Of a stretch of DNA of 5,241 nt, positions 1 through 5,241 are shown piece by piece. The position numbers were made by a program, and so were the translations under genes. Source of the DNA: an uncultured Gammaproteobacteria bacterium (lineage in GTDB: Bacteria > Patescibacteriota > Patescibacteriia > UBA2591 > UBA6264); the NCBI GenBank assembly GCA_964507075.1, contig CAZDOL010000011.1:1-5241 (forward strand), in the 5' to 3' direction. Below the pieces are notes generated by a model that did no database searches, was not told where the DNA came from, and saw nothing but the letters and a program-made list of their open reading frames with translations. How positions within the stretch are numbered: position 1 is the first letter of the stretch; each line of letters begins with the position of its first letter.

Positions 1-18
1 AATTTTAAAGAATTCTAA

Positions 19-51
19 AAAAAGTTTGGTGGCCGAGCCACCAAACTTTTT
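19..51. terminator. Symmetric (bidirectional-type) intrinsic terminator hairpin, copy A: AAAAAGTTTGGTGGC-cga-GCCACCAAACTTTTT
   Basis: Perfect 15-bp stem. The core pairs g24-c33 with g37-c46, and A19-23 pairs with T47-51. The loop is 3 nt (34-36). An A5 run 5' and a T5 run 3' would let it terminate transcription from either direction. It probably ends an unseen upstream gene. Confidence 0.8.
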
Positions 52-54
52 GTC

Positions 55-83
55 TTGACAAAAAGGGGGAATTATGCTATTCT
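55..83 (+). promoter_or_regulatory. Sigma70-type promoter: -35 TTGACA (55-60), 17-nt spacer, extended -10 TGcTATTCT (75-83)
   Basis: Consensus -35 hexamer, optimal 17-nt spacing, a TG at 75-76 one base upstream of the -10 TATTCT (78-83). It lies about 60 nt upstream of the 142 start codon. Confidence 0.65.
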
Positions 84-141
84 TTTAAATAAGATTCGTT
101 CTTTCAAAAGAAAAACGAACAAAAAAAGAAAAGGAGAAATC

Positions 142-720
142 ATGAAAAAGACAATTGTTTTTTCAATGATTATTGCAGTTTTTTTTACAGCTAACCTGTT
201 TGCTGGGAATTTTTTCCTCGCAAAACTATCACATGAAGGGTCCCTCATTTTTGGATGGGACCATATGGAAAAGAACTGGCTGACCGAGGTGGTGGTCAGC
301 GCAGATGGTGATTTGTTCATGGTTGGTGTTGGACCAATGTTTGATATTGGTTCCGTTAGTTTTAATTCACCCTTGTTGCTCACTTTAGAAGATAATGGCA
401 TCAGCGATGAATTTGATTTAGCGCCTAGAATTGATATTGCCATTGGCAAGTGTCTGATTCAGAACTGGAATGACATTGTTTTTGCTGCTAAGTATTTTGA
501 TTCATGGAGTACTGACAACAGAATATTGTATCAGTTATCTCCGGACCACAAACTGGGGTTGAACTTTCTTACGTCCATGGGTGGAGGCGAGAGTTACAGT
601 TTGGGATTACTTCATCAGTATAAGATAAATGATATTTTCACTGTTGCTTCTTTCGCCGGTTATAATATAACTGATGAAGAAACGAAAGCCTGGGTTAAAC
701 TCAAATTCTTTCTTCCATAA
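142..720 (+). CDS. Hypothetical secreted protein (192 aa), beta-strand-rich, no family recognised
   Basis: ATG at 142 is preceded by AAGGAG (131-136) with 5-nt spacing. The N-terminus MKKTIVFSMIIAVFFTANLFA is a classic signal peptide. The ORF-track start at 55 lies inside the promoter and would add a Lys/Arg-rich, non-signal extension. The mature part has alternating hydrophobic/polar strand-like segments and ends in ...WVKLKFFLP. Confidence 0.75.
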   Translation: MKKTIVFSMIIAVFFTANLFAGNFFLAKLSHEGSLIFGWDHMEKNWLTEVVVSADGDLFMVGVGPMFDIGSVSFNSPLLLTLEDNGISDEFDLAPRIDIAIGKCLIQNWNDIVFAAKYFDSWSTDNRILYQLSPDHKLGLNFLTSMGGGESYSLGLLHQYKINDIFTVASFAGYNITDEETKAWVKLKFFLP

Positions 721-744
721 TCAACAATTTTACAACAAGACAAC

Positions 745-769
745 AAGCCCGTCATATTATGGCGGGCTT
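745..769 (+). terminator. GC-stem hairpin after the secreted-protein gene (AAGCCCGTCAT-att-ATGGCGGGCTT), no clear U-tract
   Basis: 11-bp stem with one G.U wobble (t752-g762) and a 3-nt loop, 25 nt past the stop codon. The downstream sequence is cactcgttgtg, so there is no canonical T-run. It could be a weak terminator or an mRNA 3'-stabilising hairpin. Confidence 0.5.
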
Positions 770-776
770 CACTCGT

Positions 777-785
777 TGTGGATAA
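777..785 (-). promoter_or_regulatory. Perfect DnaA-box consensus 9-mer (TTATCCACA on the minus strand; TGTGGATAA as written)
   Basis: Exact 9/9 match to the widely conserved DnaA box, 7 nt upstream of the -35 hexamer at 792-797. I found no second good box in the window, so this is not an origin. Confidence 0.4.
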
Positions 786-791
786 CTTTTG

Positions 792-820
792 TTGACTATT
801 AATAGTTATGGGTATATAAT
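792..820 (+). promoter_or_regulatory. Near-consensus sigma70 promoter: -35 TTGACT (792-797), 17-nt spacer, -10 TATAAT (815-820)
   Basis: 5/6 match at -35, 6/6 at -10, and optimal spacing. It sits about 50 nt upstream of the DUF5320 start codon. Confidence 0.75.
795..806. promoter_or_regulatory. Perfect 12-bp palindrome ACTATTAATAGT overlapping the -35 and spacer; candidate operator
   Basis: All six pairs are complementary: a795-t806, c796-g805, t797-a804, a798-t803, t799-a802, t800-a801. A bound dimer here would occlude RNA polymerase. Confidence 0.35.
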
Positions 821-869
821 CAAAACATAGTCGACACATTTTTTAATTAATTTTTTAAACAATAAATAT

Positions 870-1100
870 ATGCCAAGATATGATGGAAATGGTCCTGCCG
901 GTATGGGTCCTGGAACAGGATGGGGGAGAGGCCCTTGCGGAGCTGGTCGTGGATTCAATAGAGGATTTGGTGGTGGATTCGGCTCTCGCCGATTCTGGAC
1001 CAAGTCAGAAGAAAAAGAATCATTACAAGGAGAGAAAGAGATGCTAGAAAACGAAATGAAAGCAATCAAAGAACGCTTAGATGAATTAAAAAATAAATAA
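870..1100 (+). CDS. DUF5320 family protein (76 aa): Gly/Arg-rich N-terminal half plus C-terminal coiled coil
   Basis: The N-terminus MPRYDGNGPAGMGPGTGWGRGPCGAG matches the DUF5320 signature as I remember it (MPRxDGTGPxGxGPxTGRGxGxC). The C-terminus SEEKESLQGEKEMLENEMKAIKERLDELKNK is heptad-like. The gene ends in tandem stops, TAA TAA. No SD is visible. Confidence 0.88.
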   Translation: MPRYDGNGPAGMGPGTGWGRGPCGAGRGFNRGFGGGFGSRRFWTKSEEKESLQGEKEMLENEMKAIKERLDELKNK

Positions 1101-1109
1101 TAAAAAAGT

Positions 1110-1150
1110 AAACATTGTCTTATCTTGTTTGTTGATATGAGGCAATGTTT
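1110..1150 (+). other. Imperfect long stem-loop between the DUF5320 and thioredoxin genes
   Basis: AAACATTGTCT (1110-1120) pairs with AGGCAATGTTT (1140-1150): 11 bp with one G.U. An inner TATC (1121-1124) pairs with GATA (1134-1137). On the + strand it is followed by ggtgtag, so there is no good U-tract. On the minus strand it would be followed by a T6 run. Confidence 0.5.
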
Positions 1151-1160
1151 GGTGTAGAAT
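1132..1160 (+). promoter_or_regulatory. Candidate internal promoter: TTGATA (1132-1137), 17-nt spacer, TAGAAT (1155-1160)
   Basis: 4-5/6 matches at each hexamer with 17-nt spacing, about 25 nt upstream of the trx ATG. It is embedded in the 3' half of the stem-loop. Such matches also arise by chance in AT-rich DNA. Confidence 0.35.
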
Positions 1161-1184
1161 TAATAAAAAAATAAAATTAAGTTT

Positions 1185-1514
1185 ATGTCTAAAATTATTG
1201 AATTAACAGACCAAAATTTTGATAAAGAGGTTTTGCAATCTGACATCCCAATTTTAGTAGATTTCTGGGCTCCGTGGTGCCAGCCTTGTTTAATGATGTC
1301 CCCAATATTAGATGAGTTAGCAAAAGAATTAGATGGTAAAATTAAAATTGCTAAACTTAATACTGAGATTCCTAGCCATCAGCAAATGGCCGTGCAATAT
1401 GATATTCGCAGCATTCCTAATATGAAATTTTTTAAAGACGGAAAGGTGATTAAAGAATTTATTGGTTTGCGCTCTAAAGAAATGCTTAAAACAGAATTAG
1501 AAACAGAAATTTAG
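1185..1514 (+). CDS. trxA: Thioredoxin (109 aa) with atypical active site WCQPC
   Basis: Collinear with E. coli TrxA by eye: KIIELTDQNFDKEVLQSDIPILVDFWAPWCQPC..., IRSIP (cis-Pro) and FKDGK. The active-site Cys residues are C32 and C35 (nt 1278-1289), with Gln replacing the canonical Gly of CGPC. Confidence 0.95.
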   Translation: MSKIIELTDQNFDKEVLQSDIPILVDFWAPWCQPCLMMSPILDELAKELDGKIKIAKLNTEIPSHQQMAVQYDIRSIPNMKFFKDGKVIKEFIGLRSKEMLKTELETEI

Positions 1515-1554
1515 GATTTTTTAACAAATATATAAGTTTTAAATTATAAACAAA

Positions 1555-1917
1555 ATGAAAATTTGTATTTCATCAATTGGAAAAAATCTTTCTTCTGCTA
1601 TTGACCCAAAATTTGGAAGATGCGCCTATTTTTTAATTATGGATTCTGAAGAGAGAGAAAAGTTTGAAGTTATTGAAAACACAGGAACTCAATCTCAACA
1701 TGGGGCTGGTGTCACAGCTGCTCAAATTGTAGCTGACAAAAAGGTAGATATTGTTATTTCCGGGAATTTCGGACCAAATGCTTATCTTGTTCTATCCCAA
1801 GCTGGCATTAAGTGTTATACCGTCTCCGGCTCTATGTCTGTGAAGGAAGCATTAGAATCTTTAAAACAAGGTGAACTTCAGGAATTAGTTAGGTCACCCT
1901 CATCTCATTATAGATAG
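1555..1917 (+). CDS. NifX/NifB-C-terminal-like 'dinitrogenase iron-molybdenum cofactor biosynthesis' domain protein (120 aa), orange-protein-like
   Basis: MKICISS...KFGRCAYFLIMD...HGAGVTAAQIVADKKVDIVISGNFGPNAYLVLSQAGIKCY follows the family pattern: HFGRA..F.i.d, then G.G..aa..l...gv..vi.g.iG..a...L...GI.v. The size is typical of stand-alone NifX-fold proteins. Confidence 0.88.
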   Translation: MKICISSIGKNLSSAIDPKFGRCAYFLIMDSEEREKFEVIENTGTQSQHGAGVTAAQIVADKKVDIVISGNFGPNAYLVLSQAGIKCYTVSGSMSVKEALESLKQGELQELVRSPSSHYR

Positions 1918-1923
1918 AATTTA

Positions 1924-2805
1924 ATGGCAACAGAAAAAATTCAAAAAATTGCTATTACCGGCGGTAAGGGCGGAACAGGCAAATCTACCTTTTCTGTTTT
2001 ATTAGCTAATAAATTAATTAAACAAGGCCATAAAGTGGTTTTAGTTGATGTTGATGTAGAATGCCCGAATGATTATTTGTTAGTAAATCAAAAGCTTGAA
2101 AAAATAGCAAAGTTTGTTTATACTAAATTTCCTAAATTAGACAAAAGAAAATGTCGGAAATGCGGTTTATGTGTCGAATCGTGTAAAAGTAATGCTATAT
2201 TTCAAGCACCCGGCAAATATCCAATATTTTTACCAGAGCTTTGCGCTGGTTGTGGTGTTTGTTGGCTAACTTGCCCATACAACGCCATAAGGCCCCAAAA
2301 AGTAAAAACAGGGAAAATTTTTGTTAATAAAGTCAAAAGGAATTTATGGTTGATTACAGGACAAACTAATCCAGGATTAGAAGAAACAGGTCCGGCCGTA
2401 GCACAAGTAAAAAAGTTTGCTTTGCAATTTGCTAAAAAGAAAAATATTGATATGGTTTTATTTGATACAGCTGCTGGAATTCATTGTCCCGTAATTCAGG
2501 CATTGATTGGTGTAGATTTAGCTTATGCCGTGACAGAACCAACGCCAATGGGCGCTTATGATTTAGAATCAATATTAAGTTTATCTCAAAAATTGAAAAT
2601 ACGCATTAAAGTAATTTTGAATCAAGCAAATTTAGGCAGCAAAAAGCTCGTTGAGAAAGTTGTCAATAAATATAAAACTAAAATAATCAATGAGATTCCT
2701 TATTCCAAAAATTTAGCACAAGCATATTCTATGGGACAACTCTTGAATTTAAAATGTGATTTTAAGATTAAAATAGAGAAAAATTTTTATGAAAAAAAAA
2801 TTTAA
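1924..2805 (+). CDS. MinD/ParA/Mrp-type P-loop ATPase with inserted 2x[4Fe-4S] ferredoxin domain (293 aa), paralogue 1
   Basis: Deviant Walker A GGKGGTGKST (nt 1960-1989). Two ferredoxin motifs, CRKCGLCVESC and CAGCGVCWLTCP (C77-C117, nt 2152-2274). Walker B-like VLFDTAAG followed by a conserved HCPV Cys (C188, nt 2485-2487). The start is 6 nt after the preceding stop. Confidence 0.93.
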   Translation: MATEKIQKIAITGGKGGTGKSTFSVLLANKLIKQGHKVVLVDVDVECPNDYLLVNQKLEKIAKFVYTKFPKLDKRKCRKCGLCVESCKSNAIFQAPGKYPIFLPELCAGCGVCWLTCPYNAIRPQKVKTGKIFVNKVKRNLWLITGQTNPGLEETGPAVAQVKKFALQFAKKKNIDMVLFDTAAGIHCPVIQALIGVDLAYAVTEPTPMGAYDLESILSLSQKLKIRIKVILNQANLGSKKLVEKVVNKYKTKIINEIPYSKNLAQAYSMGQLLNLKCDFKIKIEKNFYEKKI

Positions 2806-3667
2806 AATAGCGATTGCTTCAGGGAAGGGCGGAGTCGGCAAGAGTATGCTCACTTCGTCGTTATCTACTTTGTTTAGCCAAAAGTATAAAGTTGTAGCCA
2901 TAGATGCTGATGTTGATGCTCCGAATTTAGCTATTTGGTTAGGAGAAATTGGTAAATGGAACAAAATAGAAAAAATTAGCGTTTCGTCCAAACCGATTTT
3001 TGATTATAATAAATGTAATGGTTGTGGTAAGTGTGCTCAGATTTGTCAATTTAGCGCTATAAAAATGGTATCAGGGAGACCACAATTAGAGCCCTTTACT
3101 TGCGAGGGGTGTGGGGCTTGTGAAATTATTTGTCCCCAAAAAGCTATTAATTTTAAGCCAGTCAATAGTGGTAAAATAAAAATAAAAAATACAAAATATG
3201 GCTTTTTTTTAATATCTGGTGAGCTTATGCCGGGGGAGATAGGTTCTGGTAAAATAATTTCAAAAATAAAGGAAATAGCCGAAGAATATGATTATGAAAT
3301 TATGCTTATAGACTCTTCTCCTGGTACTGGTTGCCCTGTTATCGCTTCGTTACAAGGAGTTGATTTTGTGGCCTTAGTAACCGAGCCAACGCCTTCAGCA
3401 TTTTCCGATTTAAAAAGAGTTTTAAAAGTAGTTAATTATTTTAAATTACCATGGGGATTAATAATCAATAAAAAAGATATCAACAAGACATTAAGCAGCA
3501 GAATTGATAAATGGGCTAAAGGGAGGAAATTAGGTGACATTTCTTATGACCAAAATATCTTTAAAGCTATTGCTGACTTTAAACCAATAATGGAAACCGA
3601 TTTAACAGCTAAAGAGGAAATCAAAACTATTTTTAATAAATTACTTCTTAAGATTCGAAATATATGA
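2789..3667 (+). CDS. MinD/ParA/Mrp-type P-loop ATPase with inserted 2x[4Fe-4S] ferredoxin domain (292 aa), paralogue 2
   Basis: Walker A SGKGGVGKSM (nt 2819-2848). CNGCGKCAQIC and CEGCGACEIICP (C76-C115, nt 3014-3133). LIDSSPGTGCPV (C182, nt 3332-3334). The N-terminus MKKKFKIAIASGKGG parallels paralogue 1, which supports the 2789 start and a 17-nt overlap with the upstream gene. Confidence 0.93.
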   Translation: MKKKFKIAIASGKGGVGKSMLTSSLSTLFSQKYKVVAIDADVDAPNLAIWLGEIGKWNKIEKISVSSKPIFDYNKCNGCGKCAQICQFSAIKMVSGRPQLEPFTCEGCGACEIICPQKAINFKPVNSGKIKIKNTKYGFFLISGELMPGEIGSGKIISKIKEIAEEYDYEIMLIDSSPGTGCPVIASLQGVDFVALVTEPTPSAFSDLKRVLKVVNYFKLPWGLIINKKDINKTLSSRIDKWAKGRKLGDISYDQNIFKAIADFKPIMETDLTAKEEIKTIFNKLLLKIRNI

Positions 3668-4734
3668 AAGAAAAAATAGCTACAATATCAATATTTAATA
3701 ATTTATTTTTAGCAATAGGAAAGATTTTGATTGGTCTTTTGGTAAAATCAGTATCAATTTTTGCAGAAGGGATTCATTCATCAGTTGATGTTTTATCATC
3801 TGTTATAAGTTTGGTTGGTATAAAAATAGCTAAAAAACCAGTTGATAAAAACCATCCATATGGTCATTACAAGTTTGAGGTTCTTGCGGGACTCCTTATA
3901 ACAATCATTTTATTTTTAACTGGAGCCAAGATTCTTTATGAAGCATATAAAGGTTTTTTATCGCCTTCTGTGGTAAAATTAAGTTATTTAGCATTGGGAA
4001 TTATGGCTGTTTCGGCCATAGCAAATGAAGTTATGTCTCGTCTAAAAATACATTATGGCAAAAAAGAAAATTCCATAAGTCTTCTTTCTGATGGGGTTCA
4101 TGACAAAGTAGATGTTTGGGCTTCGGTTGCAGTTTTTATTGGTTTAATTTTGTCTAGATATTGGATTTATGTTGATTCATTTCTAGCATTATTAATTGGA
4201 TTATATATAATGAAGGAGTCTTTTTCTTTAGGAAAAGAGGCTACAAATTCGTTGTTAGATGTCTCAGCTGGCGAAGAAATTGAAGACAAAATCAAAAGCA
4301 TTGTAATTGAACAAAGGATAGAAATCTCGGATTTAATAACACAAAAGAAAGGTTCCGCAATAACCGCAAACCTAAAGATTAAATTACCTAATGAGACAAG
4401 CGTGGAAGAAGCTACGAAAATATCTAATAATTTAAGGAGTGGCTTGATTGATAAAATTGAATTACTTGAATATGTTGCTATTCAAATAGAAGGACGCGAT
4501 ATATCAAATAATTATTTCAGGCCTACAAAAACACTCTTTGGTTTGAAATTAGGCGAAAAATTTGGTTGGCAGAGGAAGGGGAAATTCAAAAATTCAATTT
4601 CTCAGGCCGAAGGTAAAGGGCCAGAGGGATATTGTCAGTGTTCTCAATGTGGATATAAGATTAAACATGAACGTGGAACTCCGTGTTTTGAACTAAAATG
4701 CCCTAATTGTAATATAAATTTAAAAAGGAAATAA
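3664..4734 (+). CDS. Cation diffusion facilitator (CDF) family metal transporter with C-terminal 4-Cys zinc-ribbon extension (356 aa)
   Basis: About six hydrophobic helices. The TM2 motif is H38-SSV-D42 and the TM5 motif is H146-DKV-D150 (an HD-HD transport site). A cytoplasmic alpha/beta domain spans roughly residues 200-277. An extra ~80-aa tail ends in GKGPEGYCQCSQCGYKIKHERGTPCFELKCPNCN. The start overlaps the upstream stop as ATGA (3664-3667). Confidence 0.92.
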   Translation: MKEKIATISIFNNLFLAIGKILIGLLVKSVSIFAEGIHSSVDVLSSVISLVGIKIAKKPVDKNHPYGHYKFEVLAGLLITIILFLTGAKILYEAYKGFLSPSVVKLSYLALGIMAVSAIANEVMSRLKIHYGKKENSISLLSDGVHDKVDVWASVAVFIGLILSRYWIYVDSFLALLIGLYIMKESFSLGKEATNSLLDVSAGEEIEDKIKSIVIEQRIEISDLITQKKGSAITANLKIKLPNETSVEEATKISNNLRSGLIDKIELLEYVAIQIEGRDISNNYFRPTKTLFGLKLGEKFGWQRKGKFKNSISQAEGKGPEGYCQCSQCGYKIKHERGTPCFELKCPNCNINLKRK

Positions 4735-4736
4735 AC

Positions 4737-5015
4737 ATGCCAAGACCAAGATTATGTCGTCGAGTACGATTTAACCCAAATATTACATATTTCAAGCCCC
4801 AAGGAGTTCCTCTGAGGTTGTTGGAAATGATTGAATTGACGTCAGAAGAAATAGAGGCCCTGCGACTTAAGAATATAAAAAATTTGGACCAAATTAAATG
4901 TGCTAAAAAAATGAATACTTCTCAAAGCACTTTTCAGCGGATTTTGACATCTGCTTATAAAAAGGTAGCAGATGCTTTGGTAAATGCTAAAGCTATAAAA
5001 ATCATCACCGATTAG
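4737..5015 (+). CDS. DUF134 / UPF0251 family predicted DNA-binding protein (92 aa)
   Basis: MPRPRLCRRVRFNPNITYFKPQGVPL...LTSEEIEALRLKNIKNLDQ...MNTSQSTFQRILTSAYKKVADALVNAKAIKI matches the DUF134 pattern (MPRPxxCRRV, YFKP.G.P, sigma-r4-like HTH, RKKVAdALvnGKAI). AAGGAA at 4725-4730 is a plausible SD. The start is 2 nt after the CDF stop. Confidence 0.9.
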   Translation: MPRPRLCRRVRFNPNITYFKPQGVPLRLLEMIELTSEEIEALRLKNIKNLDQIKCAKKMNTSQSTFQRILTSAYKKVADALVNAKAIKIITD

Positions 5016-5020
5016 TTTAG

Positions 5021-5053
5021 AAAAAGTTCAGTGGCCGAGCCACTGAACTTTTT
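5021..5053. terminator. Symmetric intrinsic terminator hairpin, copy B: AAAAAGTTCAGTGGC-cga-GCCACTGAACTTTTT
   Basis: Perfect 15-bp stem and 3-nt loop, flanked by A5 and T5, starting 6 nt after the DUF134 stop codon. It ends the operon. Confidence 0.85.
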
Positions 5054-5056
5054 GAT

Positions 5057-5085
5057 TTGCCAAAAAGAGAAAAATTTAATATAAT
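5057..5085 (+). promoter_or_regulatory. Sigma70-type promoter: -35 TTGCCA (5057-5062), 17-nt spacer, -10 TATAAT (5080-5085)
   Basis: 5/6 match at -35 and 6/6 at -10 with optimal spacing. Its position relative to the hairpin is the same as in copy A. Confidence 0.65.
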
Positions 5086-5118
5086 TAACGTACATAAAGG
5101 GTATTAAACATCTGTACT

Positions 5119-5241
5119 ATGAAAGCTAAATTGTTTTTTGTCTTGTTTCTGGTTTTTATTATATCTTCGGCACTATTTACAAGAAATATAGTAAATGCCC
5201 AGGCAGACTTATCTATTACTAATGCCAGTATTAGTTTTTCA
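5119..5241 (+). CDS. 5' end of a secreted protein (partial, runs off the window)
   Basis: ATG at 5119 opens 41 codons with no stop: MKAKLFFVLFLVFIISSALFTRNIVNAQADLSITNASISFS. This is a signal peptide with an AxA-like site (VNA-Q). It lies about 35 nt downstream of the TATAAT, and the SD is poor. Confidence 0.55.
   Translation, partial: MKAKLFFVLFLVFIISSALFTRNIVNAQADLSITNASISFS

Follow-up and report, generated by a model that had tools for sequence, protein, structure and literature searches.

The orange-protein (ORP) proteins are conserved across anaerobes and have been studied since 2011 without an assigned function. In Desulfovibrio vulgaris the ORP complex consists of Orp3, Orp4, Orp5, Orp8 (the orange protein) and Orp9/MrpORP; Orp3 and Orp4 are MinD-like, with two [4Fe-4S] motifs each and a C-terminal amphipathic helix, Orp5 is homologous to a small [2Fe-2S]-binding protein, and MrpORP passes Fe-S clusters to Orp3, Orp4 and Orp8 in vitro (PMC6345978). 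The cluster bound by the orange protein is [S2MoS2CuS2MoS2] (cited in PMC6345978). Three of the genes lie in the order orp5-orp4-orp3, and orp expression needs sigma54, IHF and OrpR, a [4Fe-4S] redox sensor (PMC8359166). In D. alaskensis, transcripts of Dde_3197-3199 co-vary with feoA and flavodoxin (PMC10533852), which hints at a link to iron status. Here we describe a related seven-gene cluster on contig CAZDOL010000011.1 (assembly GCA_964507075.1, positions 1 to 5,241), a stretch of 5,241 nucleotides (nt) that we call the window. From its sequence and that of its relatives, we would give roughly a 50% probability to the reading that the cluster is one autoregulated operon which handles a divalent metal, most likely Fe(II) with Zn(II) as an alternative, together with the metal-sulfur clusters derived from it.

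An earlier note, made from the letters of the window, had described seven same-strand genes closed by one terminator and had read them as an expanded ORP-like cluster. The features of the cluster are as follows, with the basis of each call in brackets.

792..820, + strand, sigma70-type promoter TTGACT, 17-nt spacer, TATAAT (11/12 positions)
806..825, + strand, palindromic operator TTATGGGTATATAATCAAAA, presumed DUF134 binding site (position weight matrix score 23.7)
827..835, + strand, leader motif ATAGTCGAC, a degenerate copy of AAAGGTCG (comparison with leaders of sister loci)
870..1100, + strand, DUF5320 protein, 76 aa (Pfam PF17253)
1132..1160, + strand, possible internal promoter TTGATA, 17-nt spacer, TAGAAT, before the thioredoxin gene (10/12 positions)
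1185..1514, + strand, thioredoxin with WCQPC active site, C32 and C35 (Pfam, TIGR01068)
1555..1917, + strand, carrier protein of the NifX/MTH1175/orange-protein fold, 120 aa (Nitro_FeMo-Co, PDB sequence matches)
1924..2805, + strand, MinD-type ATPase number 1 with inserted 2x[4Fe-4S] ferredoxin domain (Pfam, NCBIfam)
2789..3667, + strand, MinD-type ATPase number 2 with inserted 2x[4Fe-4S] ferredoxin domain (Pfam)
3664..4734, + strand, cation diffusion facilitator (CDF) gene, whole (open reading frame listing)
3664..4494, + strand, CDF transporter body, six transmembrane helices and cytoplasmic domain (Cation_efflux, AlphaFold2 model)
4495..4620, + strand, disordered Gly/Arg/Lys-rich tether of the CDF, residues 278-319 (AlphaFold2 confidence)
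4621..4734, + strand, Cys-rich knuckle of the CDF, residues 320-356 (orthologue alignment, AlphaFold2)
4737..5015, + strand, DUF134/UPF0251 protein, presumed autorepressor (PF02001)
5021..5053, + strand, intrinsic terminator hairpin followed by a U-run (folding, sequence read)

The listing of open reading frames (ORFs) places the seven + strand genes exactly at the coordinates of the earlier note, and from gene 1 to gene 7 the junctions are a gap of 84 nt, a gap of 40 nt, a gap of 6 nt, an overlap of 17 nt, a 4-nt ATGA overlap and a gap of 2 nt. Layout, spacings and terminator all stood up to the ORF listing and to folding: the hairpin at 5021-5053 has a folding energy of -21.7 kcal/mol (z = -6.2), and 0 of 200 shuffles folded equally well. 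The absence of an internal terminator was likewise confirmed by a pattern scan, which returned no terminator-like site between 1185 and 5015 and which overlooked the 5021-5053 terminator because its stem rule swallowed the T-run. All seven family calls of the note score above the Pfam gathering score, with NCBIfam in agreement where models exist; among the domains proposed, only ZT_dimer in the CDF fell slightly short (25.1 against a cutoff of 26.7). The sigma70-type site at 792-820 is the best promoter match in the window, while the candidate at 1132-1160 is a pattern match only and has no operator. The seven genes are one tightly coupled unit behind a sigma70 promoter, and the arrangement is far beyond chance: dozens of species-level genomes have these neighbours again around their orthologous CDF. 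Three metagenome contigs (L001-L003, from JGI and Logan) are identical to the window. The sigma70 promoter, the intrinsic terminator and the labels on the closest relatives suggest a host of the CPR/Patescibacteria type (CPR, candidate phyla radiation), hence a bacterium.

In its core the cluster works like the ORP system, and it is a distinct variant of that system, its version in CPR bacteria and DPANN archaea. The two paralogous MinD-type ATPases correspond to Orp3 and Orp4. In both, CbiA/ParA is split by 2x Fer4 with two CxxCxxCxxxC motifs; ATPase number 1 has a Walker A GKGGTGKS and conserved ECPN and HCPV cysteines, and a PDB search returned no full-length solved homologue for it. ATPase number 2 ends in an amphipathic helix, EEIKTIFNKLL, with a hydrophobic moment of 0.60 against a protein-wide 95th percentile of 0.56. 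The single-domain protein of the NifX/MTH1175 fold (Nitro_FeMo-Co, 81.9 bits; PDB sequence matches 1eo1 at 1.6e-21 and 1rdu at 1e-19) is homologous to the orange protein Orp8, matching that of D. gigas (2wfb) at E = 1.7e-15 over 107 residues. Further likenesses are a dedicated regulator with a palindromic site at the cluster promoter (the window's regulator being presumed) and a restriction to anaerobes. A possible counterpart of Orp5 is a small Cys-rich module: at locus L090 it has a gene of its own just before the ATPases, where D. vulgaris has orp5, and in the window it is fused to the CDF.

The earlier comparison with ORP thus holds for the orange-protein homologue and for the two Orp3/Orp4-type ATPases, but not for MrpORP nor for sigma54/OrpR control, which are absent. 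Unlike orp clusters, the window lacks MrpORP (Mrp/NBP35 plus Di-Nase): the NCBIfam model for it gives only 32-47 bits over partial regions against a cutoff of 450, and there is no Mrp-type gene in the window or in L001. A sigma70 promoter with a DUF134 operator takes the place of the sigma54 promoter and of OrpR/IHF control; no enhancer-binding protein gene lies within 7 kb upstream, and the window palindrome differs from the OrpR sites GGGCGYRTTTTGCGCCC. The CDF stands between the ATPases and the regulator with the Cys-rich module as its fused tail, a thioredoxin is added, and the hosts are CPR bacteria and DPANN archaea.

The CDF gene product belongs firmly to its family, with 156 bits for Cation_efflux and 216 bits for TIGR01297 (cutoff 82), and among the NCBIfam models it scores 145 for MamM, 141 for MntE, 133 for MamB, 116 for FieF and 64 for ZitB. 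Its body is closest in the PDB to Shewanella oneidensis YiiP/FieF (7e-27), and the AlphaFold2 model has a confident body of six transmembrane helices and a cytoplasmic domain. Like YiiP/FieF, and also MamB/MamM and MntE, it combines the six helices with a cytoplasmic alpha/beta domain, HxxxD motifs in helices 2 and 5 and an HPYGH loop; the transport site, H38/D42 with H146/D150, is invariant in 32 aligned orthologues. Two features set it apart from YiiP/FieF, namely its translational coupling to ORP-type genes and a C-terminal extension of about 80 residues, found in no solved CDF, which is made of a tether and a knuckle. At locus L058 a CDF match around 10001-11020 has no intact ORF while the upstream genes and operator are intact, and may be a frameshift or a pseudogene.

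This Cys-rich tail was overlooked in the earlier note and is the feature that ties the transporter to the cluster. The extension is common to hundreds of full-length CDF homologues at 63-89% identity. Its tether (residues 278-319) is disordered, with a predicted local distance difference test score (pLDDT) below 50, and holds an invariant GFGWQRKG motif; the knuckle, C-x-C-x2-C-x5-H-x5-C-x4-C-x2-C, keeps six cysteines and one histidine in all 32 orthologues. The invariant positions of the tail are W302, Q303, G317, G319, P320, G322, C324, C326, C329, H335, G338, P340, C341, C346, P347, C349, L353 and R355. Modelled alone, the knuckle reaches a pLDDT of 87. It resembles rubredoxin, rubrerythrin, HypA and zinc-ribbon knuckles, with no structural match significant, and had no match in Pfam, NCBIfam or PDB sequence searches; the model suggests a rubredoxin-like or zinc-ribbon-like fold. 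As a functional analogy only, it recalls the HMA domains of P1B-ATPases and Atx1/CopZ, which are also small Cys-based modules occurring free or tethered to a transporter. It differs from them in its rubredoxin-like knuckle in place of the ferredoxin-like beta-alpha-beta-beta-alpha-beta fold, in having six cysteines and one histidine rather than one CxxC, and in being fused also to a transcription factor and to NifX-like carriers; metal binding by the knuckle is predicted.

A scan in which each GTDB species was represented by a single genome showed the tailed CDF to be encoded in 203 species, and 80 loci were retrieved from these, whose ORFs were annotated with hidden Markov models built from domain segments. 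Among the hosts that are named, the archaeal ones are DPANN Pace-, Woese-, Nano- and Aenigmarchaeota, the bacterial ones CPR Parcubacteria/Paceibacterota, Falkow-, Portnoy- and Zambryskiibacteria plus one Spirochaetota genome; the labels of many third-party annotation assemblies look like placeholders. Neighbours were counted around the tailed CDF in the 49 loci flanked by at least 3 kb upstream and at least 1 kb downstream. NifX-like proteins stand beside it in 78%, DUF134 in 76%, DUF5320 in 63% and the MinD-type ATPase with ferredoxin domain (MinD-Fd) in 61%, and all four core partners are present in 45%; DUF5320 is the first cluster gene in 63%. The canonical CPR order is DUF5320 - NifX - NifX - MinD-Fd - CDF - DUF134, and that of DPANN is DUF5320 - CDF - DUF134 - NifX ... 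MinD-Fd (one or two copies).

These counts bear on what the earlier note regarded as additions to an ORP core, namely thioredoxin, CDF and DUF5320, an association whose uniqueness to this genome would have spoken against its reading. For the CDF and DUF5320 the association is not unique, as both are conserved neighbours across species. The CDF recurs with the core and is a conserved partner of it; DUF5320 can no longer be called an addition, being present also in the classical sigma54-type cluster L090; and thioredoxin is an accessory gene, because only 16% of well-flanked loci carry a classical or short form, although some thiol-redox gene occurs in 41%. Other kinds include a DsbD/CcdA membrane domain with a secreted CPHC (DsbA-like) domain joined to it, Pyr_redox_2 flavoproteins, and a thioredoxin fused to the catalytic chain of ferredoxin:thioredoxin reductase. 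The window thioredoxin (Pfam 101.6 bits; TIGR01068 110.5 against a cutoff of 96.8) has the variant active site WCQPC and not the canonical WCGPC, shares APWCQPCLM with the cluster-linked thioredoxins of L029, L048 and L055, and looks inserted relative to the canonical gene order. The DUF5320 protein scores 37 bits against a cutoff of 27 over the full profile, and consists of an MPR.DG.GP N-terminus, a Gly/Arg-rich segment with one conserved cysteine, and a C-terminal coiled coil.

Unassigned ORFs in the 80 cluster spans were clustered de novo and their representatives scanned against Pfam. Five families recur: a 94-aa EncFtn/rubrerythrin-like protein in 9 loci, an ArsP_1 permease in split form in 8, a permease of the ABC-3 family and its ATPase (ZnuBC/TroCD type) in 7, a ZIP transporter in 4, and in 3 a cobW/HypB/UreG-type GTPase that has an FeS domain at its C-terminus. 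Together they point to a metal economy. The earlier note had read the cluster, with its membrane metal transporter, as a pathway that acquires a metal. CDF transporters export cations from the cytoplasm, and the nearest solved relatives of the window CDF, YiiP and FieF, are efflux pumps, so that the CDF is unlikely to be where metal is acquired; the importers ZIP and ABC-3 are found in sister loci.

The same survey bears on the idea that the cluster handles molybdenum or tungsten with copper and sulfide, the NifX-fold protein binding a thiometallate-copper cluster and the CDF removing a partner cation. The homology of that protein to the D. gigas orange protein 2wfb, which binds a thiometallate-copper cluster (the Mo-Cu-S cluster mentioned above), is what speaks for it. 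The recurrent families of the 80 cluster spans, however, include neither a transporter for molybdate or tungstate nor a molybdopterin gene. The substrates of CDFs are divalent cations and not oxyanions or Cu(I), and small-genome CPR and DPANN organisms seem rarely to encode Mo/W enzymes. We regard this reading as scarcely probable.

The regulatory part of the system was examined in the 160 nt upstream of the first cluster gene, which have in common a 20-bp palindrome, TTATG(A/G)(A/G)TAnnTA(T/C)(T/C)CATAA. In the bacterial loci it overlaps the -10 hexamer of a conserved promoter, TTGACA-17-TATAnT, a layout that over 25 CPR-type loci keep ahead of their first cluster gene, and in the window the copy at 806-825 overlaps the -10 box (815-820) in the same manner. 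In the archaeal loci the palindrome follows directly after a TTTAAATA TATA box and is often duplicated, so that its placement in both domains is typical of repressors. A position weight matrix (PWM) scan over 1.07 Mb of related loci gave 128 raw matches, against 4-11 in shuffles; cluster promoters account for 70 of the 74 distinct sites, which typically stand there 30-110 nt ahead of DUF5320, NifX or CDF. Because this matrix derived from the very promoters that were scored, the scan was repeated across domains with a PWM built from archaeal-type sites only, searching up to 320 nt upstream of the first cluster gene. The archaeal matrix matched 15 of 28 bacterial-type promoters in a search space of 9 kb, whereas elsewhere it gave 18 matches in 399 kb, as expected from shuffles (16).

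DUF134 is the only DNA-binding protein that is kept in the cluster in both domains of life. The window copy scores 67.9 bits for PF02001 (cutoff 27) with a weak NCBIfam match to sigma70-ECF region 4 and has a sigma70-region-4-like helix-turn-helix; the N-terminal motif M.RP...R..F.P...YFKP.G is conserved across 62 sequences. L087, where DUF134 occurs and the CDF does not, has the palindrome, and the sigma54-regulated L090, which lacks DUF134, does not have it; L091 has DUF134 plus a variant palindrome, TTGGGTAATAACCCAA, in its promoter region. Since it is the sole shared DNA-binding protein and the operator is present or absent along with it (L087, L090), DUF134 is probably an autoregulator that binds the palindrome, and the earlier proposal of a dedicated regulator gains support from the conserved operator at the cluster promoters. 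The position of the operator upstream of DUF5320 or NifX means that the whole gene set is controlled together. In the literature searched, we found no functional study of DUF134, UPF0251, COG1342 or DUF5320.

The regulatory logic, and only that, is like that of IscR, SufR, Fur and Zur, where the operator overlaps the -10 box and the regulator lies inside its own operon. At L091 (4204-8391) the order is thioredoxin - 436-aa protein - knuckle protein with a DUF5320 N-terminus - DUF134 - SufC - SufB/D, and the regulator directly upstream of SufC-SufB/D recalls Fe-S- and metal-sensing repressors; going by this order and the variant palindrome, DUF134 may in some genomes have a minimal SUF-type Fe-S assembly system under its control as well. 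DUF134 is nevertheless a family unrelated to IscR, SufR, Fur and Zur, its consensus (TTATGRRTAnnTAYYCATAA) is not a Fur, Zur or IscR box, and, unlike theirs, the same DUF134 operator is used in Bacteria and Archaea.

The knuckle proved to be a mobile module. A profile of its 39-residue core, run against 1.84 billion representatives (50% identity), retrieved 2245 proteins with an E value of 1e-3 or less, of which 549 had 1e-10 or less. DUF134 itself is longer in 18 DPANN loci, with 150-176 aa, and ends there in a Gly/Arg linker and a knuckle. Stand-alone knuckle proteins of 50-110 aa often begin with a DUF5320-type N-terminus, MPRGDGTGP. Other fusions join it to NifX-like domains (P0259, P0295, P0186), to a 2x[4Fe-4S] ferredoxin (P0250), to a rhodanese with three knuckles and a NifX-like domain in 600 aa (P0163), and to two PDZ domains with 4-5 knuckles and 1-3 NifX-like domains (P0158, 1430 aa; P0159, 988 aa), and two secreted knuckle-repeat proteins have signal peptides (P0161, P0174). 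A cluster-linked DsbD-type membrane protein with the secreted CPHC (DsbA-like) domain was also observed at L067 (5382-6539) and similar loci. Given the secreted knuckle repeats and the secreted CPHC domain, some of the system may work outside the cytoplasm, as would suit a metal-exporting CDF.

Knuckle proteins also occur in ORP-type clusters that have no CDF. The pacearchaeal locus L087 reads DUF5320-like - DUF134 - knuckle - NifX - MinD-Fd - MinD, followed by EncFtn-like and ZIP genes, and L090 has a PAS-sigma54 activator divergent from NifX - DUF5320 - Mrp-like - NifX - NifX - knuckle - MinD-Fd - MinD-Fd. Because of these contexts and that of L091, DUF5320 and the knuckle are regular members of ORP-type clusters, and the CDF fusion plugs a transporter into this network. 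The L090 knuckle protein, used as query, returned 22 metagenomic matches, none of them from Desulfovibrio. For Dde_3197, the counterpart of Orp5 (DVU2105), the best match (41.3%) is a protein with the annotation dinitrogenase FeMo-cofactor biosynthesis protein (PMC10533852), which argues, if anything, against Orp5 being the knuckle protein. As a tentative extension, which we hold as possible and less probable than the operon reading itself, the 6-Cys/1-His knuckle might be a widespread mobile family binding metal or Fe-S and wiring CDF, DUF134 and cluster carriers together; the ORP system would be that network, the DUF134 proteins would be repressors responsive to metal or clusters, and the cassette would have been exchanged between CPR and DPANN.

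A simpler view would take the CDF and DUF134 as a plain metal-efflux detoxification module, with the other genes as unrelated co-transcribed neighbours. These two are indeed the tightest pair of the cluster, DUF134 lying directly 3' of the CDF in 47 of 79 loci and mostly 1 nt away; L043 and L059 have both without MinD-Fd or NifX, and the efflux pumps named above are the nearest solved relatives of the transporter. However, the 4-nt ATGA overlap between MinD-Fd and CDF is kept in 17 of 28 loci, the operator places the whole set under joint control, and the CDF knuckle is a module that returns in fusions with NifX-like, ferredoxin and rhodanese proteins and inside classical orp clusters without a CDF. 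We therefore regard a detoxification module as unlikely.

In the operon reading, the parts would act as follows. A DUF134 dimer would bind the palindrome and block RNA polymerase until a metal or cluster signal frees it, the signal being sensed by DUF134's own knuckle in DPANN and in trans in CPR. The two MinD-ferredoxin ATPases, as a heterodimer, and the NifX-fold protein would hold and pass a metal-sulfur cluster, using ATP. A CDF dimer would export surplus cytoplasmic metal, either as an outward valve or as a supplier of metal to the cell exterior, and the knuckle, on its flexible arm of about 40 residues, could gate the pump or hand metal between the pump and its soluble partners in the manner of an HMA domain. 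Thioredoxin would keep the cysteine ligands reduced.

Several observations weigh against this scheme. Around the tailed CDF, none of the four core partners is present in 16% of the 49 loci. The short CPR-type DUF134, including the window copy, has no conserved cysteine in the alignment, so that sensing in CPR must be indirect, and another factor could bind the operator. A correlation between the recognition-helix residues of DUF134 and the operator half-site, also tried, was a trend confounded by phylogeny and with exceptions, and was dropped as evidence. As to the metal, the whole-sequence scores of the CDF, and likewise the neighbouring genes, lean towards Fe, but the H-D/H-D transport site is Zn-like, such a site being more typical of Zn(II) than of Fe(II) in ZnT/CzcD-type CDFs. 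Finally, loss of orp expression in D. vulgaris leads to morphology defects, and its authors still call the role of the system unclear (PMC8359166).

Those defects, together with the location of MrpORP at the cell pole (PMC6345978, PMC8359166), would suit a MinD-like positioning or cell-division system, a role that has been proposed for the D. vulgaris ORP complex; here the ATPases would organise an assembly at the membrane, and the metal-binding features would be merely structural or redox-sensing. The membership of the ATPases in the MinD/ParA family and the amphipathic helix that ends ATPase number 2 would suit it as well. On the other side, division or cytoskeletal genes do not recur in the 80 loci; the accessory genes that do recur there encode metal transporters, thiol-redox enzymes and ferritin-like proteins. 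The joining of the knuckle to rhodanese, ferredoxin and NifX-like domains suggests metal-sulfur chemistry, and DUF134 and a knuckle protein adjoin SufCB in L091. A positioning system is thus very unlikely in our view, and metal and cluster handling by one operon stays our preferred account. For a system such as ORP, the variant offers testable handles, which are the DUF134 operator, an undescribed Cys-rich domain that ties pump, regulator and NifX-like carriers together, and a steady genomic association with Fe/Zn transporters, ferritin-like proteins, thiol-redox enzymes and SufCB. Three of its features have apparently been undescribed so far: the knuckle and its fusion network, a DUF134 operator shared by Bacteria and Archaea, and the linkage to a CDF.

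The window cluster itself appears, from sequence comparison, to be a mosaic of the CPR and DPANN types. Its DUF134 (74-84% identity), DUF5320 and promoter/operator are nearest to CPR-type loci, while its NifX-like protein, both MinD-Fd proteins and the CDF (except for L007) are nearest to DPANN-type loci. The CDFs of archaeal and bacterial hosts share 58-71% identity, and because of this identity across domains and of the shared operator, the data suggest that the cassette has been exchanged between CPR bacteria and DPANN archaea. That it is kept in such very small genomes and apparently exchanged across domains suggests an importance for the anoxic metal and Fe-S economy.

About 15 of 25 CPR-type loci have a hairpin in the leader, after the operator and before the start codon. 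The stems vary, with at least 8 different arm pairs (among them GAUAG/CUAUC, GGCAAU/AUUGCC and GAGAAC/GUUCUC), and the loop is conserved, being A-rich and then GGUCG; examples are L021 8097-8124, L027 1004-1033, L037 5943-5971 and L084 6935-6966. The leaders were folded one by one, a MAFFT leader alignment being out of structural register. With its compensatory changes, the hairpin looks like a 5'-leader RNA element. In the sister CPR loci it carries AAAGGUCG, with AAAGGTCG as the hairpin-loop motif, and the window leader at 827-835 keeps just AUAGUCGAC and forms no stable hairpin. A search of the whole window against Rfam gave no match with an E value of 1 or less, and thus no covariance match to a NiCo/czcD-type riboswitch or other known cis-regulatory RNA.

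Outside the cluster, the window holds an upstream ORF of 192 aa at 142-720 (55-720 if counted from an upstream TTG), with a signal-peptide-like hydrophobic N-terminus and no Pfam match. A hairpin at 757-781 (TTATGGCGGGCTTCACTCGTTGTGG, then T-rich), 37 nt past the stop codon (718-720) of this ORF, was flagged as terminator-like and separates the upstream gene from the cluster promoter. Downstream, a gene that occupies 5120-5241 and runs on in L001 (11456-12499) has its own promoter-like site at 5057-5085; its product of 347 aa is hydrophobic at the N-terminus and matches TSP3_bac weakly. Further upstream on L001 are a mechanosensitive channel, an LD-carboxypeptidase and a diversity-generating retroelement, the last of which (L001 1073-2452, bAvd accessory gene and RVT_1 reverse transcriptase) lies about 5-6 kb upstream of the window start.

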